From the IMG/VR virus record IMGVR_UViG_2778261422_000003: a DNA stretch of 49,269 nucleotides; one strand, given 5' to 3'. This DNA is from a virus (lineage: Duplodnaviria > Heunggongvirae > Uroviricota > Caudoviricetes). Below the pieces are notes generated by a model that searched no databases, was not told where the DNA came from, and saw only the letters and a list, made by a program, of their open reading frames with translations. The translations under genes were made by a program, and so were the position numbers. Of this stretch, positions 3,309-47,630 are shown piece by piece (within the stretch, counting starts at the first letter, position 1; each line of letters starts with the position of its first letter).

Positions 3309-3884
3309 CTACGGCAGTGCTGGCCATTCAATATCCTGTGCAGTTGACGTATCAACACGGTTCAGCAATACCCGATACTTTTTCCATGCTTCCAGCAACG
3401 AGATTTCTTCCTCCGTTGCAATTTCCAGATCTGCAGCATCCTGAAGCGGCGCAATATGCTCACTGGCTACCTGCATCAGGTTGTTTTTTGTTTCTTCCGC
3501 CTCCCGGATCCGGAACAGTTTTTCTGCTTCCGTATCCTTCACCCAGGCTGTGCCGTTCCACTTCTGAAACTCCCCTTCCGGCGATAACCAGGTAACATTT
3601 TCCGGTAACGGACCGAGTTCAGAAATAAATAACGCGTCGCCGGAAGCCACGTCATAAACCGTTTTACCCCGATGATCTTCAACGAGATGCCACGATGACT
3701 CATCACTGTTGAAAACAGCCACGAAGCCAGCCGGAATATCTGGCGGTGCAATATCGGTACTGTTTGCTGGCAGACCTGTATGAGGCGGAATATATGCATC
3801 ACCTTCACCAATAAATTCATTAGTTCCGGCCAGCAGATTATAAATTTTTATGGTCCGTGGTTGTTCACTCATTCTGAATGCCAT
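3309..3884 (-). CDS. tfa: tail fibre assembly protein Tfa
   Basis: 191-aa ORF; near-identical by recall to lambda Tfa ([39 protein letters not shown]...); start overlaps stf stop. Confidence 0.9.
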
Positions 3885-28257: not shown

Positions 28258-28602
28258 GATGGTGTTAACTCCGGTCATCACTGGCACTACCATTGCTGGT
28301 TCAGAGTTAAAAAAACTATTATTTTTTTCATAATGTTACCGTAATATGTGAGTATCCATCGACTAGACACTAAGCAAAAAAGCTCCCGAAGGAGCCTTCA
28401 TTTTCACTTTCTTAAATCTAACGACAGATGGCTAACATTTAAGTATTGTGAAATATTATCAAATGTAATCATCATTGATTTACAAAAGATACATTTTGCC
28501 CCGAAAGGATTTCTGTCAGAAACATCAAAAGATGATGTTCTATACTGAGAACCATGGCAACACGGGCATCTAAAGTGAATATGGTTTGTAATATTTTCTA
28601 CC

Positions 28603-28815
28603 TCAAAGTGCCACTACATGAACAGCTGCAGGGCCTTTAGGTCCGTTCTCAATACCAAATTCGACTTCCTGATTCTCAGTTAACGTTTTGAAATCGTTGC
28701 TCTGAATAGCTGAGAAATGCACAAACACATCTTTGCTACCATCTTTCGGCGTGATGAAACCAAAACCTTTTTCAGGGTTAAACCATTTCACTAAACCAGT
28801 CATTTTGTTAGACAT
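28603..28815 (-). CDS. cspI: cold-shock protein (CspA family)
   Basis: 70-aa product [38 protein letters not shown]... with RNP1/RNP2 motifs; matches recalled CspI. Confidence 0.85.
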
Positions 28816-29151
28816 CATTATTACCTTTTGAAGAAGTTAGCCCTTGGGCAGAATGGTCCGAAAAAAAATATCAGAGAGAAAAACCAACAAGGAAATCTCA
28901 AGAGGTACAAAGAATAAAATTATAACAATGACTGCTTCAGATAATTTTGTAACAAACCAGAACACCATTAACGCATGATTAACCAACCATAGCAAGGATT
29001 ACTTTTGTAAAGAAAAACACACGAATGAAACAATAGCTTTATTTATTAATAAAACGTGTCATTCTGTCTAATGACCTTTTATCTTACCCTTAAGATTTCA
29101 AGGATTTTGACTCATGGAAGAGTCCTTTTTATTTAAATTTCACATTCAGCG

Positions 29152-31770: not shown

Positions 31771-32052
31771 TGAGATTGTGGTGCTTTTTGTGGGAGTCAT
31801 CCACTTACGCACTTTGTTTTGCCATGCCAGCAGTTAGCTTCTGCTGTAAAACTATTCATGCAGCAAACCTGCACTTCACCACAATGGTTAGCATACTTTT
31901 CCTGATTAAGATTTTGCCAAATATGCTGGCCATTGTTTCATGTATTGGACCTCCTTAATTTTTATTAAAGAAATCCAATATTCACTACTCTGTCCGTATC
32001 TCTACTCAGGCATCAGCCTTCTTCGTTATCGTATACAGACGAGCGATGAATT

Positions 32053-32268
32053 TTAATCAGTAATGATGACATTTGCTGCTGCAGGACCTTTAGCACCACT
32101 CTCTATAGAGAAGGTAACCTTTTGACCTTCAAATAAGGTTCGATAATTATCATTCTGAATCGCAGAAAAATGCACAAACACATCTTTACTACCATCAACA
32201 GGAGAAATAAAGCCGAAACCTTTATCAGCGTTAAACCATTTTACTAAACCAGTCATTTTATTTGACAT
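32053..32268 (-). CDS. cspB: cold-shock protein (CspA family)
   Basis: 71-aa [54 protein letters not shown]...; recalled match to CspB. Confidence 0.85.
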
Positions 32269-32568
32269 TCTACATTCCTTAACTTGAGCCTTTCGGCATA
32301 AATGGTTTGCATAACAGAAACGACTTCGTACTTAATTGGAGAGACTCAAAGAAGGAATAAGTGAATAACACCTGAAATGAGAACTGCTTTAGTAAACTAC
32401 TTCGTATATCGTCTGTTCTTCAAACCGACGCAATCATTAACGCATAGTTGAACATATGAAGCAATGTTTATTTTAGACATCCAGCCATCTTCAACCCCAT
32501 CAAAAAACTATAGCTTTCTTCAGGAACGTGTGTATAGTGCGCCAAGTTATCAGTATTAAGGAATTTTT

Positions 32569-35364: not shown

Positions 35365-35616
35365 TTATTCTCCTGAAAAAGCAGAAAAGCCAGCTTTTAT
35401 TCCGATCTCTTTCAATGCCTGTAATGAAGTGACAAACTCACCTTCGCGCAAGATAAATCCGTCCGTGACCCGAGCATCCACAAAATTAATTAACGCAGCC
35501 CCATTCTTTCGCAAACACATAATGCGGTAATGACTAACAAGATTTCCATTTTCAACGCACACAGCATAGAGGCCATCTTCACAAAAAATTTTACGCAGTT
35601 CTTCGATGTTCATCAT
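35365..35616 (-). CDS. rem: Rem-like small prophage protein
   Basis: 83-aa ORF MMNIEELRKIFCEDGLYAVCVENGNLVSHYRIMCLRKNGAALINF...; recalled match to Qin Rem. Confidence 0.7.
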   Translation of the reverse strand: MMNIEELRKIFCEDGLYAVCVENGNLVSHYRIMCLRKNGAALINFVDARVTDGFILREGEFVTSLQALKEIGIKAGFSAFSGE

Positions 35617-35832: not shown

Positions 35833-35988
35833 TTACTCCTCAGGTTCGTAAGCTGTGAAGACAGCGACCTCCGTCTGGCCGGTTCGGATTCGTACCTCGC
35901 AGAGGTCTTGCCTCGTTACCAGTGCCGTCACTATGACGGTTAAACAGATGACGATCAGGGCGATTAACATCGCCTTTTGCTGCTTCAT
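35833..35988 (-). CDS. hokD: Hok-family type I toxin
   Basis: ORF 35833..36045; internal start MKQQKAMLIALIVICLTVIVTALVTRQDLCEVRIRTGQTEVAVFTAYEPEE (51 aa) matches the Hok/RelF family; structured leader with 9-bp inverted repeat about 36105..36145. Confidence 0.85.
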   Translation of the reverse strand: MKQQKAMLIALIVICLTVIVTALVTRQDLCEVRIRTGQTEVAVFTAYEPEE

Positions 35989-37177
35989 AGCCTGCTTCTC
36001 CTTGCCTTCCGGCACGTAAGAGGCTAACCTACATGTGTCTAGCATGAAATTGGCCTCAGATTAATGTTAAGCGTCTTGCAGGACGCGTAATGTTAACTGG
36101 GGCTTTTCTCTATCTGCCTTTGGTGTTCACGCCCGAGGCAGATAGCCTCAAGCACCCGCAGGCATTCTACTTAACTCCCGTTACCTCGCCAATATGCAAT
36201 CAGTCAGAAAGGCGATCCATAAGAACAATGGCAAGAAAATAAATCGCCATTACAGCCGCAATAGCCAACGCACATTTGAGAACCAGCACCACAACCTCCT
36301 GTATTGGACGTACACCAGTCCTGATAAATATGAGGCTGTCTCGTCAGTGATTCAATGCAACTATTAGATATAGTTTCTCTGTTTTTTCTATGGAAATGGG
36401 ACACAACAACCTGTCGCAACCAACGCTTCTTTAAACAGACTAAATCAGGCGCAAGTCAACATTTTGTACAAGCAGAACGTAACCTGTTCTAACAGAACTC
36501 TTTGAATGAACAGCAATGATTACGCTCACAACGACTGATTGTTATTTGATATAATCCCCTGTACTCCTACGGCTATGCACGTTCAACTCCAGCGTTACAT
36601 TCGGTACCGGATAGTAATTCCATTCTCGGACATGGTATGAACGTAACCGGGTTGCCTCGACGTCCGAACGATTGCCTTAGTACGATGTGTTTTATATTTT
36701 TGCCTAACATCTGCTGGAAAGTTTCACCAATCACCATTTTATCCCAGCTTTCAAAGGATTTCTGGAACCAGAATAATTTTCTGGCGCAGGAATCTTCTTC
36801 ATTTATTACATCCTCCACCAGTAAAGTTATCAATGATTCAACTTAACATACGGTAATGATATCCACTTTAGTTCTACACACTTTAGAGATTTTCATTTTT
36901 TCTATCATCAGTCAGTACTCTTCTGAGTGACCGGCTATTCAGGTATTCATAAAGTCGCTCGCTGTTGTATTGGCAACTTCTGGATCTGGGACTAAGCAAA
37001 CCACTAAGTTGGAAAATGTCCGCTGTGAGCGAGCAGTGGTCATTGCTTACAGCATTCTATGTGAATTAACAGTGGACTAGGCACAATGAACACCTGAGGG
37101 ATCACATTTCATAGGTGACAGTTAAACGCGCTATAAGCAGTCCTTAACAAGAAGGACTGTTATCTGAACTGCCTTGA

Positions 37178-38134
37178 CTAGTCTAGTCTCTGTGGAAAGA
37201 GCGCAAGATGCAGATCACCATACTTATCAGGATTTGAATTTATATGCATCAGCAAAACATCCAACTGATTTGTTAAATATTTATTCCTTTCTTTTTTCTC
37301 TTTATCTTCAATATCCTTGAGATTTTTCTTTTCTTCTTTTTCAATGGCTTTCCTTTCCTTTTCAGCTTTTTCCCTAATGTTTACATCTGCCAGTTTTTTA
37401 GCTTTATCCGCTCTAAACTTAATTAAATTATCAACAATACTCTTAACATATTGTTTACCAGATAGTATTTTTCTCGCCTCTTCGATAATAGTAATACTGT
37501 AATCAACACACTCATTACCATATTTAAAAGCATACTCAGGGGATAATTCTTTTATAGCTGAGGAACTAGAATTATCAGACAAATATGGTTCACTTAAATG
37601 AGCGAAAGATCCCCTATACGAGGAGAAATTTTCCCATGACGAAAAGTTTTCATCTTCCACATCACAATGAATACCTACAGATTGAAGAACAGAATTTAAA
37701 TGCTTTGTTTTTATTCCGTGATTGGAAGTGATGACACTCTTCCATTTCATGATAGTCCTCATTTCACAATCAACAATAAACTCAACAACATGTTGTTTTA
37801 TATAAGAACTATCATCATCCCTATCATCAGCATCCTCGTTAGTAACAAATCTGTCATCATAACTTTTCGTCCCATTTAATAAAAACATCAATGGTATAGT
37901 AACCTCCCCACATTCTTTGAACAGGAAAAACGAATATTTAGCGACAAAAAGGCTGACATCCTCAACAAAATTTTCAAGAGCTGCATGTAATAGAACACAA
38001 TAACTTCTTGTATCTAATTTAAATTCCTCAACACTACCAGTACCGTTCATGTGTTTTTTAAGAAAGCGATTATACAAGGCATCATTTGCGTCATACAGAG
38101 TGTAATACATATCATCTAATAAGGTAATCTCCAT
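37178..38134 (-). CDS. uncharacterised protein, distal gene of the AT-rich cargo operon; candidate effector partner of the DUF262 protein
   Basis: 318-aa ORF starting 5 nt after the upstream gene's stop (operon-like); very AT-rich codon usage; R-x4-H motif (YRGSFAH); acidic patch (EDADDRDDD); Lys/Glu-rich coiled-coil C-terminus. Confidence 0.75.
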   Translation of the reverse strand: MEITLLDDMYYTLYDANDALYNRFLKKHMNGTGSVEEFKLDTRSYCVLLHAALENFVEDVSLFVAKYSFFLFKECGEVTIPLMFLLNGTKSYDDRFVTNEDADDRDDDSSYIKQHVVEFIVDCEMRTIMKWKSVITSNHGIKTKHLNSVLQSVGIHCDVEDENFSSWENFSSYRGSFAHLSEPYLSDNSSSSAIKELSPEYAFKYGNECVDYSITIIEEARKILSGKQYVKSIVDNLIKFRADKAKKLADVNIREKAEKERKAIEKEEKKNLKDIEDKEKKERNKYLTNQLDVLLMHINSNPDKYGDLHLALFPQRLD

Positions 38135-38138
38135 TTTT

Positions 38139-39326
38139 TTACCTTAAGGTTGATGGGATCTCATTGCTTAATCCCATTGAAGAATTTAATCTTTCATATG
38201 CCAGTCTAAACCTTCTTACATGTTGTTCTTTACCTGTCGTAGTTGACTCAATTGCTACAACAAACTCAGCATTATCAAAAAGAGATTTTATAGAGTTAAT
38301 AAATTCATTTTTTTTCTCTATTAAATCATCTACCTTGTTATTCTGTATTGTACTAGCAATATAGTTAACTAAAACCTCAAAAAATGTACGATTAAATCTT
38401 GATTCCCATCGTTCCTCTATTGGAAGCCATTTTCTACCTACTTTTGTTTCTTCACCATCAAAAAGGTTGACAAGCACCTCACATGATTCATTAAAAAGGT
38501 TGAGATAGTTACATACACCAGCTTCTTTAGATGCGAAATTATCATTCATCAATTTAGTGAAGTTATCTAAATAGACCCTAAGAGAACCATTGTATTTTTC
38601 TGGGTTAAGGTTTAATGCTAGAAACTTCAATAAAATCTCAACATCCCGATATCTTTTATCTGATGACTTAAGTTTCATTATTTTATGCAGATGCAAATCG
38701 TTATCTGTATGCCTTGTAATGAAATTACTAAAATCCCCTTTGTAAATCGAGTTCCTCAACTCCTGCATAGACAATGGTGAAGATCCAGTATTTAGTCTGT
38801 AAAATATATCATATAGGACGCTATAATCCTTAAAACCTGAAAGTATTGTGCAGCGTAGATCAGCATTGAGTAAGAATCTAGCATCGTCTTTAGAAAACTC
38901 TGAGAATTTCAACCCTTCAATCGATTTTTTAATTGTTAGATTTCTTAACTTAGCATTACCATCCCATGTATTAAAACTAGGATCGATGAAACCATTTATA
39001 GCTAATAGTCTCTGTTTTCCATCGATGACCATGTATTTTTTCTTTTCGCCTATAACTTCAGCTAATACTACTTCGGGTACAGGGTACCCCACAAGTAATG
39101 ACTCTATAAGCTTTGATCTTTTATCGTTGTCCCATACATTTCTTCTTTGAAAGTCAGGATTCAAATCAATGTTTCCTTCCTCAATTTGATGAAGAATCGT
39201 CTGAACCGTCCAGTCTCTGGAATAAACAACAAGCTCTCCGACGTCTATATCGTTACCAGCGCTTTCAACTTGTTCTTTATTACTTTCAATAATCAAATCA
39301 TCTAATTCATCAATCATTGTATTCAC
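38139..39326 (-). CDS. DUF262 (ParB/Srx-fold, GmrS-like) domain protein, proximal gene of the AT-rich cargo operon
   Basis: 395-aa ORF; N-terminal region carries the DUF262 signature (PDFQRRNVWDNDKRSKLIESLLVGYPVP ... MVIDGKQRLLAINGF); no DUF1524/HNH-like motif seen in the C-terminal 250 residues. Confidence 0.8.
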   Translation of the reverse strand: MNTMIDELDDLIIESNKEQVESAGNDIDVGELVVYSRDWTVQTILHQIEEGNIDLNPDFQRRNVWDNDKRSKLIESLLVGYPVPEVVLAEVIGEKKKYMVIDGKQRLLAINGFIDPSFNTWDGNAKLRNLTIKKSIEGLKFSEFSKDDARFLLNADLRCTILSGFKDYSVLYDIFYRLNTGSSPLSMQELRNSIYKGDFSNFITRHTDNDLHLHKIMKLKSSDKRYRDVEILLKFLALNLNPEKYNGSLRVYLDNFTKLMNDNFASKEAGVCNYLNLFNESCEVLVNLFDGEETKVGRKWLPIEERWESRFNRTFFEVLVNYIASTIQNNKVDDLIEKKNEFINSIKSLFDNAEFVVAIESTTTGKEQHVRRFRLAYERLNSSMGLSNEIPSTLR

Positions 39327-39715
39327 CTTATTTACTATGTTAAGTAGTAAGAGTCAAGTTGACTCATCTTAAAATCTACCTTCCCTTCCTTGTCTAGCAC
39401 CGGAAGACAAACGTCCCACAGTGTTTTTTTACTGCACTCTCATCTCGAAAGCTATAAGTAGTTCTCTGTGCCATTCTACTGCTGGTTTCAAGGAATATTA
39501 TCTGGTTTCCAATTTTACAATATCTACTCTATTTTTGTATCGACTAATGCTATAAGCAATATAACTGAAGCACACTTTATTATGCTACCCTCCATTTTCG
39601 GCTATGATTCAAACCTACAAACATTGAATTTACTGTTATAAGGAGATTTTTACCACGTCCGCTTCTGGCATAAAGTTGACATACGGATACGAACGAAATA
39701 AGTGCTCTAGAATTC

Positions 39716-40432
39716 TTATTGTTTATATTGGGCAAGATTTTTAATAATACTTTCCCTCTCATTAAGGAGACTTATATACATTGATTCATCGAGTGTATTC
39801 TTGAGCTTGAAACGGGATTTATGTATTGATAATTTAGATACACCATCACTTAATGCTGAAGCAACTAATTTTGTATCTTCTATGTTTTTTAGGTTCGATA
39901 GTAGCGTTAGGATCATATCATTTAGATCAAGTAACTCGCTATTTATGCGCATAGGTGAGAGGTCTTTACTATCTAGTTGAGAGTTAATGGAATCAATCTT
40001 ATTATTAATTCTCTCTATAGACCCAACGATTCCTTTTCTAGCTTCAATACGAAGGATTTCACTCTTGTTTCTAGAGTTTGTCTGGAAAAGCATTTCTGAA
40101 GATAACATTGATGACGCACGATACATATCAGAGGCTAACTGCTTAACACTTTCTCTAAAGCTTGAATAATTTAATATTGCTGAACCAAACAATAAAATAA
40201 TTGGGCCATAAGCAGTTACCTTTGCTTTAATTGAACCTTCAGTAAATTTAATTTCAATTAAAACATCATCAGATAAAAAGAATTTTATTCTTTTATCAGC
40301 AAAATCCTCTATTTCGTTTCTAATTCGCGATAACTTTTCTTTACGAATTACAGCACTTACCTGTTTCAACCATCTCGGCTCAACATGAACATATGACTCA
40401 CATAATATGTTGCTGTTTATATAATCGGCCAC
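39716..40432 (-). CDS. uncharacterised protein in the AT-rich cargo island, separate transcription unit upstream of the DUF262 operon
   Basis: 238-aa ORF, AT-rich, Ser/Leu/Ile/Asn-rich; about 390 bp intergenic gap to the downstream DUF262 gene; no recognisable motif. Confidence 0.6.
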   Translation of the reverse strand: MADYINSNILCESYVHVEPRWLKQVSAVIRKEKLSRIRNEIEDFADKRIKFFLSDDVLIEIKFTEGSIKAKVTAYGPIILLFGSAILNYSSFRESVKQLASDMYRASSMLSSEMLFQTNSRNKSEILRIEARKGIVGSIERINNKIDSINSQLDSKDLSPMRINSELLDLNDMILTLLSNLKNIEDTKLVASALSDGVSKLSIHKSRFKLKNTLDESMYISLLNERESIIKNLAQYKQ

Positions 40433-42168: not shown

Positions 42169-42616
42169 TTGCTTTTTCTATAAGTTCGTCAGTTTCACGA
42201 TCTACAACGGCAGGATCTGCAAAAAGCAGTCCGGACTCCACCACATCGCCATATTCTTTATTTAACCCAGCGATCATGTACGTAATACTCTTTCCGTCAC
42301 TAATTTCACGATACAACCTGAAATCACTAATCCGGATAGCCTCCATAATTGCAGGCACTAGCGCTGTGAACTTTTCACGCTTATCCCTGGTGTCGATAGC
42401 CTTCCAGCGTTCGAATATCTTCACTCGATTAACGCTAAGCGCTCGCTGATCAACCGCGCCACCTTCATATGTGACACGCTGAACATCGATGTTCGGGCGC
42501 TCTTTCAAAGCCCAGAATGCTTCAGTGATTAATATCGTCGCCTGCTCCTGTGTCATTCCTGGTCGACATATCCAGGCATCCAGAGCCTCACGAGCCTGTT
42601 CAGGAGTGATTTTCAT
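42095..42616 (-). CDS. hypothetical regulatory protein in the cII / YdaT position
   Basis: 173-aa ORF immediately downstream of the cro-like dicC and upstream of the replication initiator; function inferred from position only. Confidence 0.45.
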   Translation of the reverse strand: MKITPEQAREALDAWICRPGMTQEQATILITEAFWALKERPNIDVQRVTYEGGAVDQRALSVNRVKIFERWKAIDTRDKREKFTALVPAIMEAIRISDFRLYREISDGKSITYMIAGLNKEYGDVVESGLLFADPAVVDRETDELIEKAIAFKLAYRQQYQQKAGWNYEPSFC

Positions 42617-42830
42617 TGTTCAACCGCCCCGCCCGCTTCGTCTTACGATATTCGTCATAAACTTTGGGATCATACTGAAGCTCCCCGCCAGATGCCTCCT
42701 GTAGACGCATCGCGCGACCTTCGGGAACTAAATCCCCTTTCCAGCTATAAAGCGAAGCCAAACGAATACCTGCTGCTTGTGCAAGTTTTGTTTTTGAACC
42801 GAAATACAAAAGAGCGTCAGTTTTAAGCAT
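42600..42830 (-). CDS. dicC: Cro-like HTH regulator DicC
   Basis: 76-aa ORF MLKTDALLYFGSKTKLAQAAGIRLASLYSWKGDLVPEG... matching recalled DicC; divergent from dicA. Confidence 0.85.
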   Translation of the reverse strand: MLKTDALLYFGSKTKLAQAAGIRLASLYSWKGDLVPEGRAMRLQEASGGELQYDPKVYDEYRKTKRAGRLNNENHS

Positions 42831-42844
42831 TTAAAACACCTTGG

Positions 42845-42864
42845 TTGTTAGTCATGACTAACAA
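42845..42864. promoter_or_regulatory. operator: perfect 20-bp palindrome TTGTTAGTCATGACTAACAA in the dicA-dicC divergent promoter region
   Basis: perfect dyad symmetry read directly from the sequence, centred in the 83-bp gap between the divergent repressor genes. Confidence 0.8.
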
Positions 42865-42913
42865 AATAGATGTTAACAAAAACATAGTCAATACGATTTA
42901 GCATTAGCTAACT

Positions 42914-43321
42914 ATGGATACAAAAAATTTAACCATCGGCGAACGCATTAGGTATCGTCGGAAAAACCTCAAACACACCCAAAGGTCTCTTGCTAAAGCC
43001 CTGAAAATCTCCCATGTGTCTGTATCACAATGGGAACGGGATGATAGTGAACCTACAGGGAAGAACCTTTTTGCCCTCAGCAAAGTATTGCAATGCTCAC
43101 CAACATGGATTCTATTTGGCGATGAAGACAAGCAACCAACACCACCTGTTGAGAAGCCGGTTGCCTTAGCCCCCAAAGAACTAGAGCTCCTTGAGCTGTT
43201 TAATGCACTGCCAGAATCAGAACAGGATACCCAGCTCGCCGAAATGCGAGCTCGAGTAAAAAATTTCAATAAACTCTTTGAAGAATTACTAAAAGCCCGT
43301 CAGCGGACAAATAAAAGATAA
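42914..43321 (+). CDS. dicA: CI-like HTH repressor DicA
   Basis: 135-aa ORF with HTH_XRE motif (RIRYRRKNLKHTQRSLAKALKISHVSVSQWER); matches recalled DicA. Confidence 0.9.
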   Translation: MDTKNLTIGERIRYRRKNLKHTQRSLAKALKISHVSVSQWERDDSEPTGKNLFALSKVLQCSPTWILFGDEDKQPTPPVEKPVALAPKELELLELFNALPESEQDTQLAEMRARVKNFNKLFEELLKARQRTNKR

Positions 43322-43346
43322 CATCATCAATGAGTTATCTTTTATT

Positions 43347-43407
43347 ATATCAATTATGTTAGTCATAACATACAAAATCACTTGACCAATATGTTAGTCA
43401 TGGCTAA
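43347..43407. promoter_or_regulatory. two further operator-like half-palindromes (atgttagtcataacat; atgttagtcatggctaa) upstream of ydfA, probable DicA-controlled promoter of the ydfA-dicF-dicB operon
   Basis: repeats of the TGTTAGTCAT half-site seen in the dicA-dicC operator. Confidence 0.65.
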
Positions 43408-43487
43408 TCTTGTTTACATCAACACACCGCACGGTGTTCTCAGCAAACAGTTCCGCCACCCCGGCGTTAAGGGGAAATGAGGTCAGC

Positions 43488-43640
43488 ATGGATACTATCG
43501 ATCTTGGCAACAGCGAATCTCTGGTATGTGGCGTGTTCCCCAACCAGGACGGTACGTTCACCGCGATGACATATACCAAAAGCAAAACGTTTAAAACCGA
43601 ATCTGGCGCGCGTTGCTGGTTAGCCAGAAACACTGACTGA
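43488..43640 (+). CDS. ydfA: small prophage protein YdfA
   Basis: ORF 43410..43640; ATG at 43488 after a gggg-aaatgagg RBS; product MDTIDLGNSESLVCGVFPNQDGTFTAMTYTKSKTFKTE... (about 50 aa) matches recalled YdfA. Confidence 0.7.
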   Translation: MDTIDLGNSESLVCGVFPNQDGTFTAMTYTKSKTFKTESGARCWLARNTD

Positions 43641-43651
43641 TGAGGCTGACG

Positions 43652-44017
43652 ATGGAATTTAAAGATTTACCGTCTGATGTACAGAAAACAGCAGCTCATA
43701 CATTGCATTCTGTGCTGCGAGAAATCGGGAAAGATATTGCAAGCGAGCCAGCAAAAGATCTGGCCCGGAAAATCAAGACCGCTTTCGTTGAGCTTTATAA
43801 TGTTGGCACTGACTCTGAAACTGTCGAGACCAAGACCGTAAGTTCACCAATATTCTCACTTGAGCCAGGCGTATTATCAGGTGAAATATGCACCGAGATT
43901 TCCAGCGAACTGCTTCCGGTAATACGAGAAGCAATTTGCCGTCGCGGTTTGGATGGAAGTTACGATCATGACGTCCTGCAAGTTCTCAGGACAATGGTGA
44001 CTTCACTGGGGGTTTGA
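43652..44017 (+). CDS. hypothetical protein (ydfB/ydfC region)
   Basis: ORF 43640..44017 (125 aa) following ydfA on the same strand; correspondence to ydfB/ydfC not verified. Confidence 0.5.
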   Translation: MEFKDLPSDVQKTAAHTLHSVLREIGKDIASEPAKDLARKIKTAFVELYNVGTDSETVETKTVSSPIFSLEPGVLSGEICTEISSELLPVIREAICRRGLDGSYDHDVLQVLRTMVTSLGV

Positions 44018-44186
44018 TCCCTGCGTCCTCTAACCTTTTGATATAGCGGTCCTCCAAGAAGCGGTAAATTTTGTCGAAATCATCTTTCCCCTCTGGTTTA
44101 TTCAGAGGATTACAGGACCCGTAAGTAGCGGCATACATTTCAACCGTTTTATCAAAAATATAAGAGACAAATTCTTCTTTAGTCAT
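43986..44186 (-). CDS. hypothetical small protein on the opposite strand
   Basis: ORF 43986..44273; internal start MTKEEFVSYIFDKTVEMYAATYG...; lower GC than flanks; coding status uncertain. Confidence 0.3.
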   Translation of the reverse strand: MTKEEFVSYIFDKTVEMYAATYGSCNPLNKPEGKDDFDKIYRFLEDRYIKRLEDAGIKPPVKSPLS

Positions 44187-44461
44187 ATAGATTTCCTTCT
44201 TGGTTATTCGGAATAAGAAGGATACCACCTCGCCTGACGTGGTTAAAAGCAGGCACACAACACGAAAGCGCACGGCGAAGTTCGTCTCACTGTACGGTGT
44301 CGTTAAATTTAATTCGACCGTGCGCTTCCGGTTGTGGCAACCCGCGAAATGGCGCGGCGGTAAGTATGGCGGGGTTATTCCTTCCCCGTTGAGGACACCG
44401 AGTTGTCAGGTTGACCATACGCTTAAGTGACAACCCCGCTGCAACGCCCTCTGTTATCAAT

Positions 44462-44518
44462 TTTCTGGTGACGTTTGGCGGTATCAGTTTTACTCCGTGA
44501 CTGCTCTGCCGCCGTTTT
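44462..44518 (+). ncRNA. dicF: DicF small regulatory RNA (ftsZ-targeting sRNA) with intrinsic terminator
   Basis: sequence tttctggtgacgtttggcggtatcagttttactccgtgactgctctgccgcc followed by a T run matches recalled DicF; GGCGG...CCGCC stem. Confidence 0.8.
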
Positions 44519-44688
44519 TAAAGTGAATTTTGTGATGCGGTGAATGCGGCTAAGCGCACGCGGAACAGTTAAAACCAAAAACAGTGTTATGGGTGGATTC
44601 TCTGTATCCGGTGTTAATTGTTAACTGGTTAACGTCACCTGGAGGCACCAGGCACTGCATCACAAAATTCATTGTTGAGGACGCGATA

Positions 44689-44877
44689 ATGAAAACGTTA
44701 TTACCAAACGTTAATACGTCTGAAGGTTGTTTTGAAATTGGTGTCACTATCAGTAACCCTGTATTTACTGAAGATGCCATTAACAAGAGAAAACAAGAAC
44801 GGGAGCTATTAAATAAAATATGCATTGTTTCAATGCTGGCTCGTTTACGTCTGATGCCAAAAGGATGTGCACAATGA
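44689..44877 (+). CDS. dicB: cell-division inhibitor DicB
   Basis: ORF 44584..44877; ATG at 44689 gives 62 aa MKTLLPNVNTSEGCFEIGVTISNPVFTEDAINKRKQERELLNKICIVSMLARLRLMPKGCAQ matching recalled DicB. Confidence 0.85.
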   Translation: MKTLLPNVNTSEGCFEIGVTISNPVFTEDAINKRKQERELLNKICIVSMLARLRLMPKGCAQ

Positions 44878-45065
44878 ATTCAGCATTTGCGCTTGTTCTG
44901 ACAGTTTTTCTTGTTTCCGGAGAGCCAGTTGATATTGCAGTCAGTGTTCACAGGACAATGCAGGAGTGTATGACTGCAGCAACCGAACAGAAAATTCCCG
45001 GTAACTGTTACCCGGTCGATAAAGTTATTCACCAGGATAATATCGAAATCCCGGCAGGTCTTTAA
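44874..45065 (+). CDS. ydfD: small membrane protein YdfD (lysis-associated)
   Basis: ORF 44820..45065; ATG at 44874 overlapping dicB stop (ATGA); 63 aa MNSAFALVLTVFLVSGEPVDIAVSVHRTMQEC... with one TM helix. Confidence 0.75.
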   Translation: MNSAFALVLTVFLVSGEPVDIAVSVHRTMQECMTAATEQKIPGNCYPVDKVIHQDNIEIPAGL

Positions 45066-45158: not shown

Positions 45159-47630
45159 ATGAGTAAAGTCTTTATTTGCGCCGCTATTCCTGACGAACTG
45201 GCAACAAGGGAAGAAGGCGCTGTGGCTGTAGCCACAGCCATTGAAGCTGGCGACGAACGCCGTGCTCGAGCAAAATTTCACTGGCAGTTCCTGGAACATT
45301 ATCCGGCTGCTCAGGACTGCGCTTATAAATTTATTGTCTGCGAGGATAAACCTGGCATACCCCGCCCTGCCCTCGATTCATGGGATGCTGAATATATGCA
45401 GGAAAACCGCTGGGATGAGGAGTCTGCTTCTTTTGTCCCGGTTGAGACTGAATCCGATCCGATGAACGTCACTTTTGACAAGCTGGCCCCTGAAGTACAG
45501 AACGCTGTCATGGTTAAGTTCGACACATGTGAAAACATCACCGTTGATATGGTTATTAGCGCACAGGAATTGTTGCAGGAAGACATGGCAACATTCGACG
45601 GCCATATCGTTGAAGCGTTGATGAAAATGCCAGAAGTTAACGCTATGTATCCGGAGCTTAAGCTGCATGCCATCGGGTGGGTTAAGCATAAATGTAAGCC
45701 TGGTGCCAAATGGCCCGAAATTCAGGCAGAGATGCGCATCTGGAAAAAACGTCGCGAAGGTGAACGCAAGGAAGCCGGAAAATACACGTCTGTTGTTGAT
45801 CTCGCCCGCGCCAGAGCCAATCAACAGCACACTGAAAATTCAACAGGAAAAATCAACCCGGTCATTGCTGCCATTCATCGCGAATACAAGCAGACATGGA
45901 AAACACTGGATGACGAACTGGCCTACGCTCTCTGGCCTGGTGATGTAGATGCCGGAAACATTGACGGCAGCATCCATCGCTGGGCAAAAAATGAAGTTAT
46001 CGACAACGACCGCGAAGACTGGAAGCGTATCTCGGCATCAATGCGCAAACAGCCTGATGCCCTTCGCTACGACCGCCAGACTATTTTTGGCCTTGTCCGT
46101 GAACGTCCGATCGACATTCACAAAGACCCTGTGGCACTGAACAAATACATTACTGAATACCTGACTACAAAGGGCGTGTTTGAAGATGAAGGAACAAATC
46201 AGAGCGCAACTGATACTCTCTCGTCGCCAGTACCAGAAACTGATGCAGTGGAAACGGCAATTCCAGACAACGAAAAAACCGAATGCAAAGTGGAAGTCGA
46301 ACCATCTGTAGAACGTGAGGGGCCGTTCTACTTCCTCTTCACCGACAAGGATGGCGAAAAATACGGTCGCGCAAACAAACTTTCTGGTCTGGATAAGGCG
46401 CTGTCTGCTGGGGCTACTGAAATCACGAAAGAAGAATATTTCGCCCGCAAAAACGGTACATACTCAGGTTCACAACAAAATACTGGTGCATCTGACACGA
46501 CCGCACAACCAGGGTCAGTAAAAGTTACCGCTGACGAAGTAAACAAAATTATGCAGGCAGCCAATATCAGCCAGCCTGACGCCGATGAACTGCTTGCAGT
46601 ATCACGTGGTGAATTTGTTGAAGGGATTAGCGACCCGAATGATCCGAAATGGGTTAAGGGGATCCAGACCCGCGATTCTGTGAACCAGAACCAGCAAGAA
46701 ACGGAACAGAACGACCAGAAAGCGGAACAAAACAGCCCAAATACGCAACAAAACGAGCCAGAAACGAAACAACCTGAACCAGTAGTGCAACAGGAACCGG
46801 AAAAGATCTGCACCGCCTGCGGTCATAGCGGTGGCGGCAACTGCCCTGATTGTGGTGCGGTGATGGGTGACGCAACATACCAGGAAATATTCGATGGAGA
46901 GAATCAGCCTGAAGTTCAGGAAAATGATCCGGAGGAAATGGAAGGCACTGCGCATCAGCACAAGGAGAACACTGGCGGCAATCAGCATCATGCCAGCGAT
47001 AGTGAAACTGGCGAGGCGTCAGATCCCTTAATTAAGGCGAACGGTCATCATAATCTCACATCCACCAGCAGAGCGGGGATTCATCTGATGATCGACCTTG
47101 AAACCATGGGAAAAAATCCCGATGCCCCGATTATCTCAATAGGTGCAATATTTTTCGATCCGCAAACCGGAGATATGGGACCGGAATTTAGTAAGACTAT
47201 CGATCTGGAAACTGCTGGCGGAGTCATTGATCGGGACACCATTAAATGGTGGCTTAAACAATCACGCGAAGCGCAATCTGCCATTATGACCGATGAAATC
47301 CCGTTAGATGATGCACTGTTACAATTGCGGGAATTTATCGACGAAAACTCCGGTGAATTTTTTGTTCATGTCTGGGGAAATGGAGCCAACTTCGACAACA
47401 CGATTTTGCGCCGTTCATACGAACGGCAGGGGATCCCCTGCCCGTGGCGTTACTACAACGATCGCGATGTACGCACAATCGTTGAGCTGGGGAAAGCCAT
47501 AGACTTCGATGCCAGAACGGCTATTCCATTCGAAGGTGAGCGCCATAATGCACTTGATGACGCCCGTTACCAGGCAAAATACGTTTCAGCTATCTGGCAA
47601 AAACTGATCCCGAGTCAGGCTGATTCTTAA
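45159..47630 (+). CDS. ydfE: large multidomain protein (YdfE-like N-terminus) with C-terminal DnaQ-like DEDDh 3'-5' exonuclease domain
   Basis: 823-aa ORF; acidic/Gln-rich low-complexity linker; Cys4 zinc-ribbon (CTACGHSGGGNCPDCG); C-terminal motifs MIDLETMG, HVWGNGANFD, HNALDDARYQA typical of the DnaQ exonuclease fold. Confidence 0.75.
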   Translation: MSKVFICAAIPDELATREEGAVAVATAIEAGDERRARAKFHWQFLEHYPAAQDCAYKFIVCEDKPGIPRPALDSWDAEYMQENRWDEESASFVPVETESDPMNVTFDKLAPEVQNAVMVKFDTCENITVDMVISAQELLQEDMATFDGHIVEALMKMPEVNAMYPELKLHAIGWVKHKCKPGAKWPEIQAEMRIWKKRREGERKEAGKYTSVVDLARARANQQHTENSTGKINPVIAAIHREYKQTWKTLDDELAYALWPGDVDAGNIDGSIHRWAKNEVIDNDREDWKRISASMRKQPDALRYDRQTIFGLVRERPIDIHKDPVALNKYITEYLTTKGVFEDEGTNQSATDTLSSPVPETDAVETAIPDNEKTECKVEVEPSVEREGPFYFLFTDKDGEKYGRANKLSGLDKALSAGATEITKEEYFARKNGTYSGSQQNTGASDTTAQPGSVKVTADEVNKIMQAANISQPDADELLAVSRGEFVEGISDPNDPKWVKGIQTRDSVNQNQQETEQNDQKAEQNSPNTQQNEPETKQPEPVVQQEPEKICTACGHSGGGNCPDCGAVMGDATYQEIFDGENQPEVQENDPEEMEGTAHQHKENTGGNQHHASDSETGEASDPLIKANGHHNLTSTSRAGIHLMIDLETMGKNPDAPIISIGAIFFDPQTGDMGPEFSKTIDLETAGGVIDRDTIKWWLKQSREAQSAIMTDEIPLDDALLQLREFIDENSGEFFVHVWGNGANFDNTILRRSYERQGIPCPWRYYNDRDVRTIVELGKAIDFDARTAIPFEGERHNALDDARYQAKYVSAIWQKLIPSQADS

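Follow-up and report, generated by a model that had tools for sequence, protein, structure and literature searches.

Does a perfect 20-base-pair (bp) palindrome lying between two divergent repressor genes, with further copies of its half beyond one of them, mark the operators of a phage immunity switch, and if so, of which one? The question is raised by positions 42,831 to 43,487 of IMG/VR virus record IMGVR_UViG_2778261422_000003 (Duplodnaviria; Heunggongvirae; Uroviricota; Caudoviricetes), a stretch of 49,269 nucleotides (nt) that was analysed as a whole and is called the window here. Our findings indicate that this locus, which holds dicC, dicA and the promoter region of ydfA, is very probably the immunity (lysis-lysogeny) switch of a Qin-family lambdoid prophage, laid out on the plan of phage P22 immC. 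The published operator Oc, its genetics and the published repression of dicBp, the promoter upstream of ydfA, identify it as the known Qin immunity switch; its locus, operators and logic are already known, having been described in 1986-1988 and extended in 2012, 2023 and 2024. The first descriptions of the Qin dicA/dicC locus, its operators and its logic are reportedly those of Bejar et al. 1986/1988, and the operator names and counts used here are taken from later papers that cite Bejar et al. 1986. The two regulators, with the operator and promoter elements around them, are as follows.

42600..42830, minus strand: dicC, Cro-like second repressor of 76 amino acids (aa); Pfam P22_Cro at 44.1 bits against a cut-off of 30.2; 100% (76/76) identical to DicC of Escherichia coli K-12
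42845..42864, unstranded: Oc, the main DicA operator, TTGTTAGTCATGACTAACAA; predicted here from homology with the published K-12 operator TTGTTAGTCATAACTAACAA
42863..42891, minus strand: dicC promoter (PR analogue), -35 TTGACT at 42891-42886, 17-nt spacer, -10 TATTTT at 42868-42863; consensus scan, 9/12 matches
42870..42889, unstranded: position of Om, a weak middle site with a TGTTA left half only, 25 bp from the Oc centre
42895..42914, unstranded: Oa, OR3-like candidate site with core TTTAG-N6-CTAAC, abutting the dicA ATG; 9/12 outer positions; equivalents in mEp460 and PPompW, and P22 OR3 at the same position
42914..43321, plus strand: dicA, CI/C2-like repressor of 135 aa; Pfam HTH_3 1.1e-15, Phage_CI_repr 7e-6
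43356..43375, unstranded: predicted distal dicBp operator (OL2-like), ATGTTAGTCATAACATACAA; 16/20 identical to Oc and kept in diverged loci with different flanks
43382..43410, plus strand: dicBp (PL analogue), -35 TTGACC at 43382-43387, 17-nt spacer, -10 TAATCT at 43405-43410; read from the sequence, with hexamer and spacing as in annotated P22 PL and the heteroimmune relatives
43391..43410, unstranded: predicted proximal dicBp operator (OL1-like), ATGTTAGTCATGGCTAATCT; 15/20 identical to Oc and conserved among the compared loci

Direct reading of positions 42845-42864 gives TTGTTAGTCATGACTAACAA, which is identical to its own reverse complement, and thus confirms both the coordinates and the self-complementarity given in an initial sequence-only reading of this DNA. 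No other perfect 20-bp palindrome occurs in the window, and block-shuffled sequence contained 0.03 on average. The 10-mer TGTTAGTCAT has five exact copies, at 42846 (+), 42854 (-), 43357 (+), 43392 (+) and 35530 (-), and when one mismatch is allowed there are nine in the window against an expected 2.49 +/- 1.42, a count reached in none of 100 shuffles. Repeat finding grouped 42846, 43357 and 43392 as one 22-nt family, its members being 511 and 35 nt apart. Further, a scan of the window for 20-mers that share at least 10 of the 12 outer positions of the palindrome returned 42845, 43356 and 43391 only, with identities to TTGTTAGTCATGACTAACAA of 20/20, 16/20 and 15/20, respectively. Taken by itself, the score over the 12 outer operator positions is not discriminating, as shuffles yield similar counts at 9 or 10/12; the signal was therefore taken from full identity, clustering around dicA and conservation. 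As a side observation, the sole further perfect palindrome of at least 16 bp in the window is the 18-bp GGCAGGGGATCCCCTGCC at 47425-47442, within the 3' part of the exonuclease gene.

Alignment with characterised operators, the check proposed with the sequence-only reading, identified the palindrome as Oc: it matches at 19/20 positions, occupies the homologous position and overlaps the dicC promoter. The single difference lies at position 12, which is G in the window and A in K-12, making Oc imperfect in K-12; what was noted as a "perfect palindrome" is therefore an allele of the known operator. If the K-12 transcript start is carried over by homology, Oc would extend from about -8 to +12 of the dicC promoter, include the transcription start and share 2 bp with the -10 TATTTT. 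In K-12, where Oc was described as a 20-nt inverted repeat, DicA binds it in vivo and a single A-to-C change abolishes binding, and mutants of Oc altered at one base have the phenotype of DicA-titration and binding mutants (Yun et al. 2012, PMC3441716). The same work mapped the dicC start by 5' rapid amplification of cDNA ends (5'RACE), with Oc overlapping the -10 of the promoter, and showed that DicA bound to Oc represses dicC while activating its own gene, dicC rising 700-fold as DicA falls (PMC3441716). DicA, composed of a helix-turn-helix (HTH) domain and a short C-terminal domain, is identical to K-12 DicA at 132 of 135 residues (three differ), and its residues 7-71 match the structures of the P22 C2 N-terminal domain (1adr, 2r1j) at E = 8e-20.

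The copies upstream of ydfA had been described in the sequence-only reading as half-sites at 43356..43371 (ATGTTAGTCATAACAT) and 43391..43407 (ATGTTAGTCATGGCTAA). Both intervals are correct and the copies are real, but the notion of isolated half-sites did not hold: they are predicted full 20-bp operators with degenerate right halves, which bracket the dicBp -35 TTGACC. The distal one ends 7 bp before the -35 hexamer, whereas the proximal one, 35 bp away, occupies the 17-nt spacer and covers the -10. The dicC-dicA spacer, in turn, contains at least one further predicted site that had been overlooked, namely Oa. It overlies a -10-like TAGCAT at 42899-42904, and its centre is 50 bp from that of Oc with the weak middle site at 25 bp; Om falls below the threshold of 8/12 outer positions in Qin, and the equivalent place in PPompW was detected at 9/12. 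This arrangement bears out the proposal that the palindrome belongs to a locus in which DicA would repress the ydfA-dicF-dicB promoter, as dicBp carries two Oc-like 20-mers and is followed by ydfA, DicF and dicB. It also agrees with published accounts, in which dicBp is the PL analogue repressed by DicA and operators lie in the dicA-dicC and dicA-dicBp spacers (PMC10448788, citing Bejar et al. 1988).

The operators and promoter hexamers correspond position for position with those of P22 immC (c2, cro, OR1-3, OL1-3, PR, PRM, PL). The centres of OR1, OR2 and OR3 are 23 and 25 bp apart in P22 against 25 and 25 bp in the window; the P22 PR -35 TTGACT lies between OR2 and OR3, and the dicC -35 is identical and equivalently placed; OR3 ends at the c2 ATG, as the third window site, Oa, abuts the dicA ATG. 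On the other side of the repressor gene, P22 PL has the same -35 TTGACC as dicBp, with OL1 in the spacer/-10 region and OL2 35 bp upstream, the distance found in the window. Both phages place TT at -7 and -6 from the dyad and pair a divergent C2-type HTH repressor with a Cro-family partner (DicC belongs to Pfam P22_Cro). Considering P22 PRM, which has a -10 TAAGAT and a transcript start 4 nt before the ATG, we infer that the -10 of dicA may be TAGCAT (42899-42904), with a nearly leaderless transcript beginning at about 42910-42911, and that dicBp transcription would start near 43417-43418. The differences from P22 are that the window operator is 20 bp with a TGTTAG half-site, in contrast to the 18-bp ATTTAAG type of P22; that no gene-24 (N-like) homologue is evident downstream of dicBp; and that C2 has 216 aa with a C-terminal self-cleaving domain, which the 135-aa DicA lacks. 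The Pfam search of DicA found only HTH_3 and Phage_CI_repr and gave no match to Peptidase_S24, and DicA is described as having no RecA (Ala-Gly) cleavage site (Ragunathan and Vanderpool 2023, PMC10448788). A repressor of this size without S24 suggests that the switch would work like P22 immC but belong to a non-cleavable, antirepressor-controlled class.

Independent support came from the heteroimmune relatives mEp460_ev081, HannyBb and PPompW, which were compared with the window together with P22. In these phages the C-terminal halves of DicA and DicC and the dicBp leader are conserved, whereas the N-terminal HTH regions and the operators have been replaced.

Qin type: strongest palindrome TTGTTAGTCATGACTAACAA, recognition-helix region SHVSVSQWER
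mEp460/HannyBb type: strongest palindrome ATTGAGTTTTCTCAAT, recognition-helix region SGSSISLWES, half-site TTGAG
PPompW type: strongest palindrome CTTAGATTTTCCTAAG, recognition-helix region AHVTISQWER, half-site CTTAG

The geometry is constant over the three types: a strong dyad lies beside the cro-like gene, a second site 49-51 bp away abuts the repressor ATG, and the -35 of the rightward promoter has a site on either side, the two being 35-36 bp apart. Since the half-site covaries with the HTH at fixed positions, the comparison argues, independently at the sequence level, for these sites being repressor operators, those at dicBp included. The same module order and operator geometry are shared by the DicA-type phages as a group (mEp460_ev081, HannyBb, PPompW and PhiR42_1). 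It was also observed that the leader at 43416-43487 (CATCAA.ACACCGCACGGTGTTCTCAGCAAACAGTTCCGC...GGCGTTAAGGGG), which follows dicBp, is conserved over the three immunity types; its conservation begins approximately at the predicted dicBp start, which is a mosaic boundary of the immunity module. The idea that this leader (43416-43495) forms a structured nut- or put-like RNA was dropped, because its fold is unexceptional (z = 0.49, with 139 of 200 shuffles folding equally well) and Rfam gave no match within it.

The K-12 Qin (Kim) prophage carries the same genes in the same order, DicF, dicB, ydfD and rem among them, with about 96% nucleotide identity over the switch region and operators at the same positions. 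A three-way alignment of the window, K-12 and O166:H15 is 99% identical per column over 701 nt, and the few differences are clustered in and beside the operators. Oc and its flanks read ...GTCATGAC... in the window, ...GTCATAAC... in K-12 and ...GTTATGAC... in O166:H15, and the corresponding forms of the distal dicBp site are TGTTAGTCATAAC, TGTTAGCTATAGC and TGTTAGCCATAAC. Megablast with 42550-44900 found parts of this stretch in 4,756 of 5,426 complete E. coli genomes, the best matches being annotated in RefSeq as dicC, dicA, DUF1391 and dicB, and 845 of the 5,426 have a dicC-dicA spacer of the window's immunity type. Scanning IMG/VR with TTGTTAGTYATRACTAACAA gave 58 loci. Alleles of Oc were then counted in a set of 59, made up of the IMG/VR loci with a dicA-start anchor (oriented), the window, and fetched E. 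coli and phage loci.

C9/A12, the K-12 type: 36 of 59
C9/G12, the perfect palindrome as in the window: 16 of 59
T9/G12: 6 of 59
T9/A12, also a perfect palindrome: 1 of 59

TGTTAG, CTAA and the -35 TTGACC hardly change in these 59 loci or in three further loci of greater divergence (in one locus the distal dicBp site has TGTTAA); what varies instead is operator positions 8, 9, 12 and 13, which are presumably not contacted by protein, and the flanks. Central bases tune the operators of P22 and 434. We nevertheless consider it unlikely that the central-position variation among Qin-type switches is an adaptive tuning of DicA/DicC affinity; were it so, a fully symmetric Oc would mean a tighter, still phage-competent switch, and the K-12 allele a relaxed, domesticated one.

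Downstream of dicA lie the genes that the switch would hold silent, and the calls made in the sequence-only reading (dicC, dicA, ydfA, DicF and dicB) proved right by open reading frame (ORF), Pfam and Rfam.

43310..43346, plus strand: AT-rich hairpin over the dicA stop codon, with 13-nt arms 100% complementary (inverted-repeat search); likely the dicA terminator
43488..43640, plus strand: ydfA (DUF1391), first gene of the repressed operon; Pfam DUF1391 94 bits
44463..44514, plus strand: DicF small RNA (sRNA); Rfam RF00039 72.5 bits against a gathering score of 48
44689..44877, plus strand: dicB, cell-division inhibitor; Pfam DicB 136.8 bits and 100% identical to the reference

After dicB the plus strand continues with ydfD, an 823-aa exonuclease gene, xis and int, and leftward of dicC lie a YdaT-family gene, an O-like gene of 321-339 aa and a DUF977 gene. 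The descending arm (GTTATC...) of the hairpin may in addition be a third, weak operator of dicBp, the distal site being 25 bp away; at the position of this hairpin, the heteroimmune relatives were seen on sequence reading to have a different one. Between ydfA and DicF the window has, in place of K-12 ydfB/ydfC, a 121-aa ORF (43652-44017, +) overlapped by a convergent 66-aa ORF (43986-44186, -), neither of which has a Pfam match; the pair also occurs in phage mEp460_ev081.

In the lysogenic state, DicA dimers would bind Oc through their N-terminal, P22 C2-like HTH. With Oc covering the edge of the -10 and the start of the leftward dicC promoter, DicA bound there would silence dicC together with the YdaT-like, O-like and DUF977 genes, while DicA on the two dicBp operators would silence ydfA, DicF, dicB, ydfD, exo, xis and int. 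At Oc, DicA would also activate its own weak promoter, as shown for K-12. In the lytic state, the Cro-like DicC would recognise the same TTAG-N6-CTAA cores and repress dicA, most plausibly acting mainly via Oa, by analogy with OR3. That the same sites serve DicC also is predicted from chromatin immunoprecipitation sequencing (ChIP-seq) in K-12, where DicC peaks flank dicA on both sides and the motif is a palindromic TT(A/C/T)G...C(G/A/T)AA (2024 preprint, PMC11430063). The expression data behind the repression of dicA by DicC likewise come from K-12. Induction most likely proceeds through the antirepressor Rem, encoded on the same prophage, which would flip the switch.

35365..35616, minus strand: rem, DicA antirepressor; 83/83 (100%) identical to Rem of strain 1297KP, RefSeq WP_000980994.1, which is the accession of the K-12 rem product

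Rem is a published DicA antirepressor that derepresses K-12 dicBp 165-fold and whose inducing signal is unknown (PMC10448788). Control of induction by SOS (LexA) was looked for through LexA boxes (CTGT-N8-ACAG): none lies near rem or the switch, and the two matches in the window (14003 and 27955) are at chance level. The lack of a box near rem fits the published statement on its signal. In having a short repressor with no RecA cleavage site and a small antirepressor elsewhere on the same prophage, the system resembles the Gifsy/Fels type (GfoR/GfoA), from which it differs in that Gifsy antirepressors are LexA-controlled whereas the rem of the window has no nearby LexA box. The rem coding sequence also contains, at 35529-35539 (-), TTGTTAGTCAT, an exact left half of Oc. 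It includes the only copy of TGTTAGTCAT in the window outside the switch and is identical in 15 loci with a matching rem stretch. We did not adopt it as an operator, as it sits in coding sequence, has no symmetric partner and matches Oc at 13/20; it could be a product of chance or of coding constraint.

Several points weigh against the view that this locus is a working DicA switch. Its function is carried over from the K-12 allele, the allele of the window being known from its sequence alone: DicA-Oc binding, dicC repression, dicA autoactivation, dicBp repression, derepression by Rem and DicC occupancy are all demonstrations made in K-12, and that the window allele behaves in the same way, which protein occupies each site, and where dicA and dicBp start are what we infer for it. 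In vivo, DicA by itself failed to bind Om and Oa, two operators predicted from sequence (PMC3441716), so that the roles given to both sites rest on analogy. The -10 of dicBp is a poor consensus match (3/6), which is why the consensus scan missed this promoter, and the dicA promoter was not recognisable by the same scan. Moreover, direct mapping of DicA on the dicBp sites was not found in the literature available; the Reg-Seq paper recovered the DicA site at dicC but lists the one at dicB as low-evidence, location unknown. Finally, binding to the dicC operator region is also reported for YjdC, a host protein of the TetR family.

A different account would have DicC alone, or a host factor such as YjdC, using the sites upstream of ydfA, with DicA repressing dicBp indirectly, for example by keeping DicC off. 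It would accommodate the low-evidence Reg-Seq entry, the binding of YjdC to the dic operator region and the fact that ChIP-seq occupancy on the dicBp side of dicA is documented for DicC, not for DicA. We hold it to be improbable, however, given that the dicBp sites are 15-16/20 identical to the genetically validated Oc, lie where the annotated P22 OL1 and OL2, which bind C2, are placed, and change in step with the repressor HTH in the heteroimmune relatives. One might also suspect, from the cryptic state of K-12 Qin and from the ability of shuffled sequence to equal the outer-position score, that the repeats have decayed or arose by chance and that the window copy of the switch is defunct. Yet the sole perfect 20-bp palindrome in 49 kb and the clustering of the best three matches around dicA speak against it; core positions stay almost invariant over 59 loci among variable flanks; dicA, dicC and rem are intact, in a switch that is functional even in cryptic K-12 Qin; and all 46 reference prophage proteins have uninterrupted matches (44 of them full length), which together make this reading very improbable. 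A perfect 10+10 inverted repeat could also fold if it were fully transcribed, and the palindrome might then be an RNA hairpin (attenuator or processing site) rather than a protein-binding site. We give this almost no credence: the K-12 start, carried over by homology, places the onset of dicC transcription within the palindrome, so that a leftward transcript would include one arm only; upstream of the palindrome there is no dicA promoter; and single-base mutants of Oc have DicA-titration and binding phenotypes. We therefore retain the interpretation of the locus as the Qin immunity switch, with DicA as the repressor at both Oc and dicBp.

The prophage that this switch would control appears complete. 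All 46 reference lambdoid proteins aligned without stop codons, and the two not covered in full are the tail fibre, whose different C-terminus limits the alignment to residues 1-538 of 986, and ydfA, with 49 of 51 residues aligned. The set includes integrase, excisionase, exonuclease, the O-like protein, Q, holin, lysozyme, Rz and both terminase subunits, as well as portal, protease, capsid, tail, J and tail fibre. The first bases of the window belong to host ydfJ, which is truncated, and its last to the integrase stop codon. The gene content supports a prophage complete in appearance, whose viability is a prediction from genes. K-12 Qin, in contrast, has pseudogenes of ydfX, exonuclease and integrase and an IS2. 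The sequence-only reading had set this completeness against the cryptic Qin; the completeness stands, but the contrast is no novelty, since DicA-type switches are documented in complete or functional phages. The functional phage mEp460_ev081 carries a similar module (PMC10448788), and PhiR42_1, a deposited phage genome (host ECOR13), shares the immunity type (96.3% identity) and aligns at about 96.5-96.8% identity with 97% of one half of the window and 73% of the other. Its similarity is what suggests that the prophage may be inducible and yield infectious particles.

Elsewhere in the prophage, the stretch at 37178-40432 (-), flanked by hokD/sok and the replication module, contains genes for a HEPN-domain protein (318 aa) and a DUF262 protein (392-395 aa) along with a 238-aa ORF; in O166:H15 this slot is taken by an FRG-domain gene and in K-12 by relBE/ydfV/flxA, and it looks like a cargo or defence hotspot. 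Rfam matches at 3343-3541, 28557-28962, 32037-32429 and 35983-36157 correspond to the IS009 sRNA, two cspA-type thermoregulator leaders, which precede cspI- and cspB-like genes, and the sok antisense RNA of hokD, all of which are typical Qin cargo.

Cumulatively, the discovery value of the locus is small, and its practical use lies in annotation: the window can be labelled with confidence as a Qin-family prophage, intact in appearance, with DicA as the repressor on which lysogeny depends. A small addition to the literature is the finding of three immunity types that share one geometry, with half-sites covarying with the repressor and a layout positionally homologous to P22 PL. This comparison would also pin down the expected position of DicA at dicBp, a location still listed as unknown in one recent paper. 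Loss of DicA would release the division inhibitors DicF and DicB, the YdfD lysis protein and the early genes of the phage.

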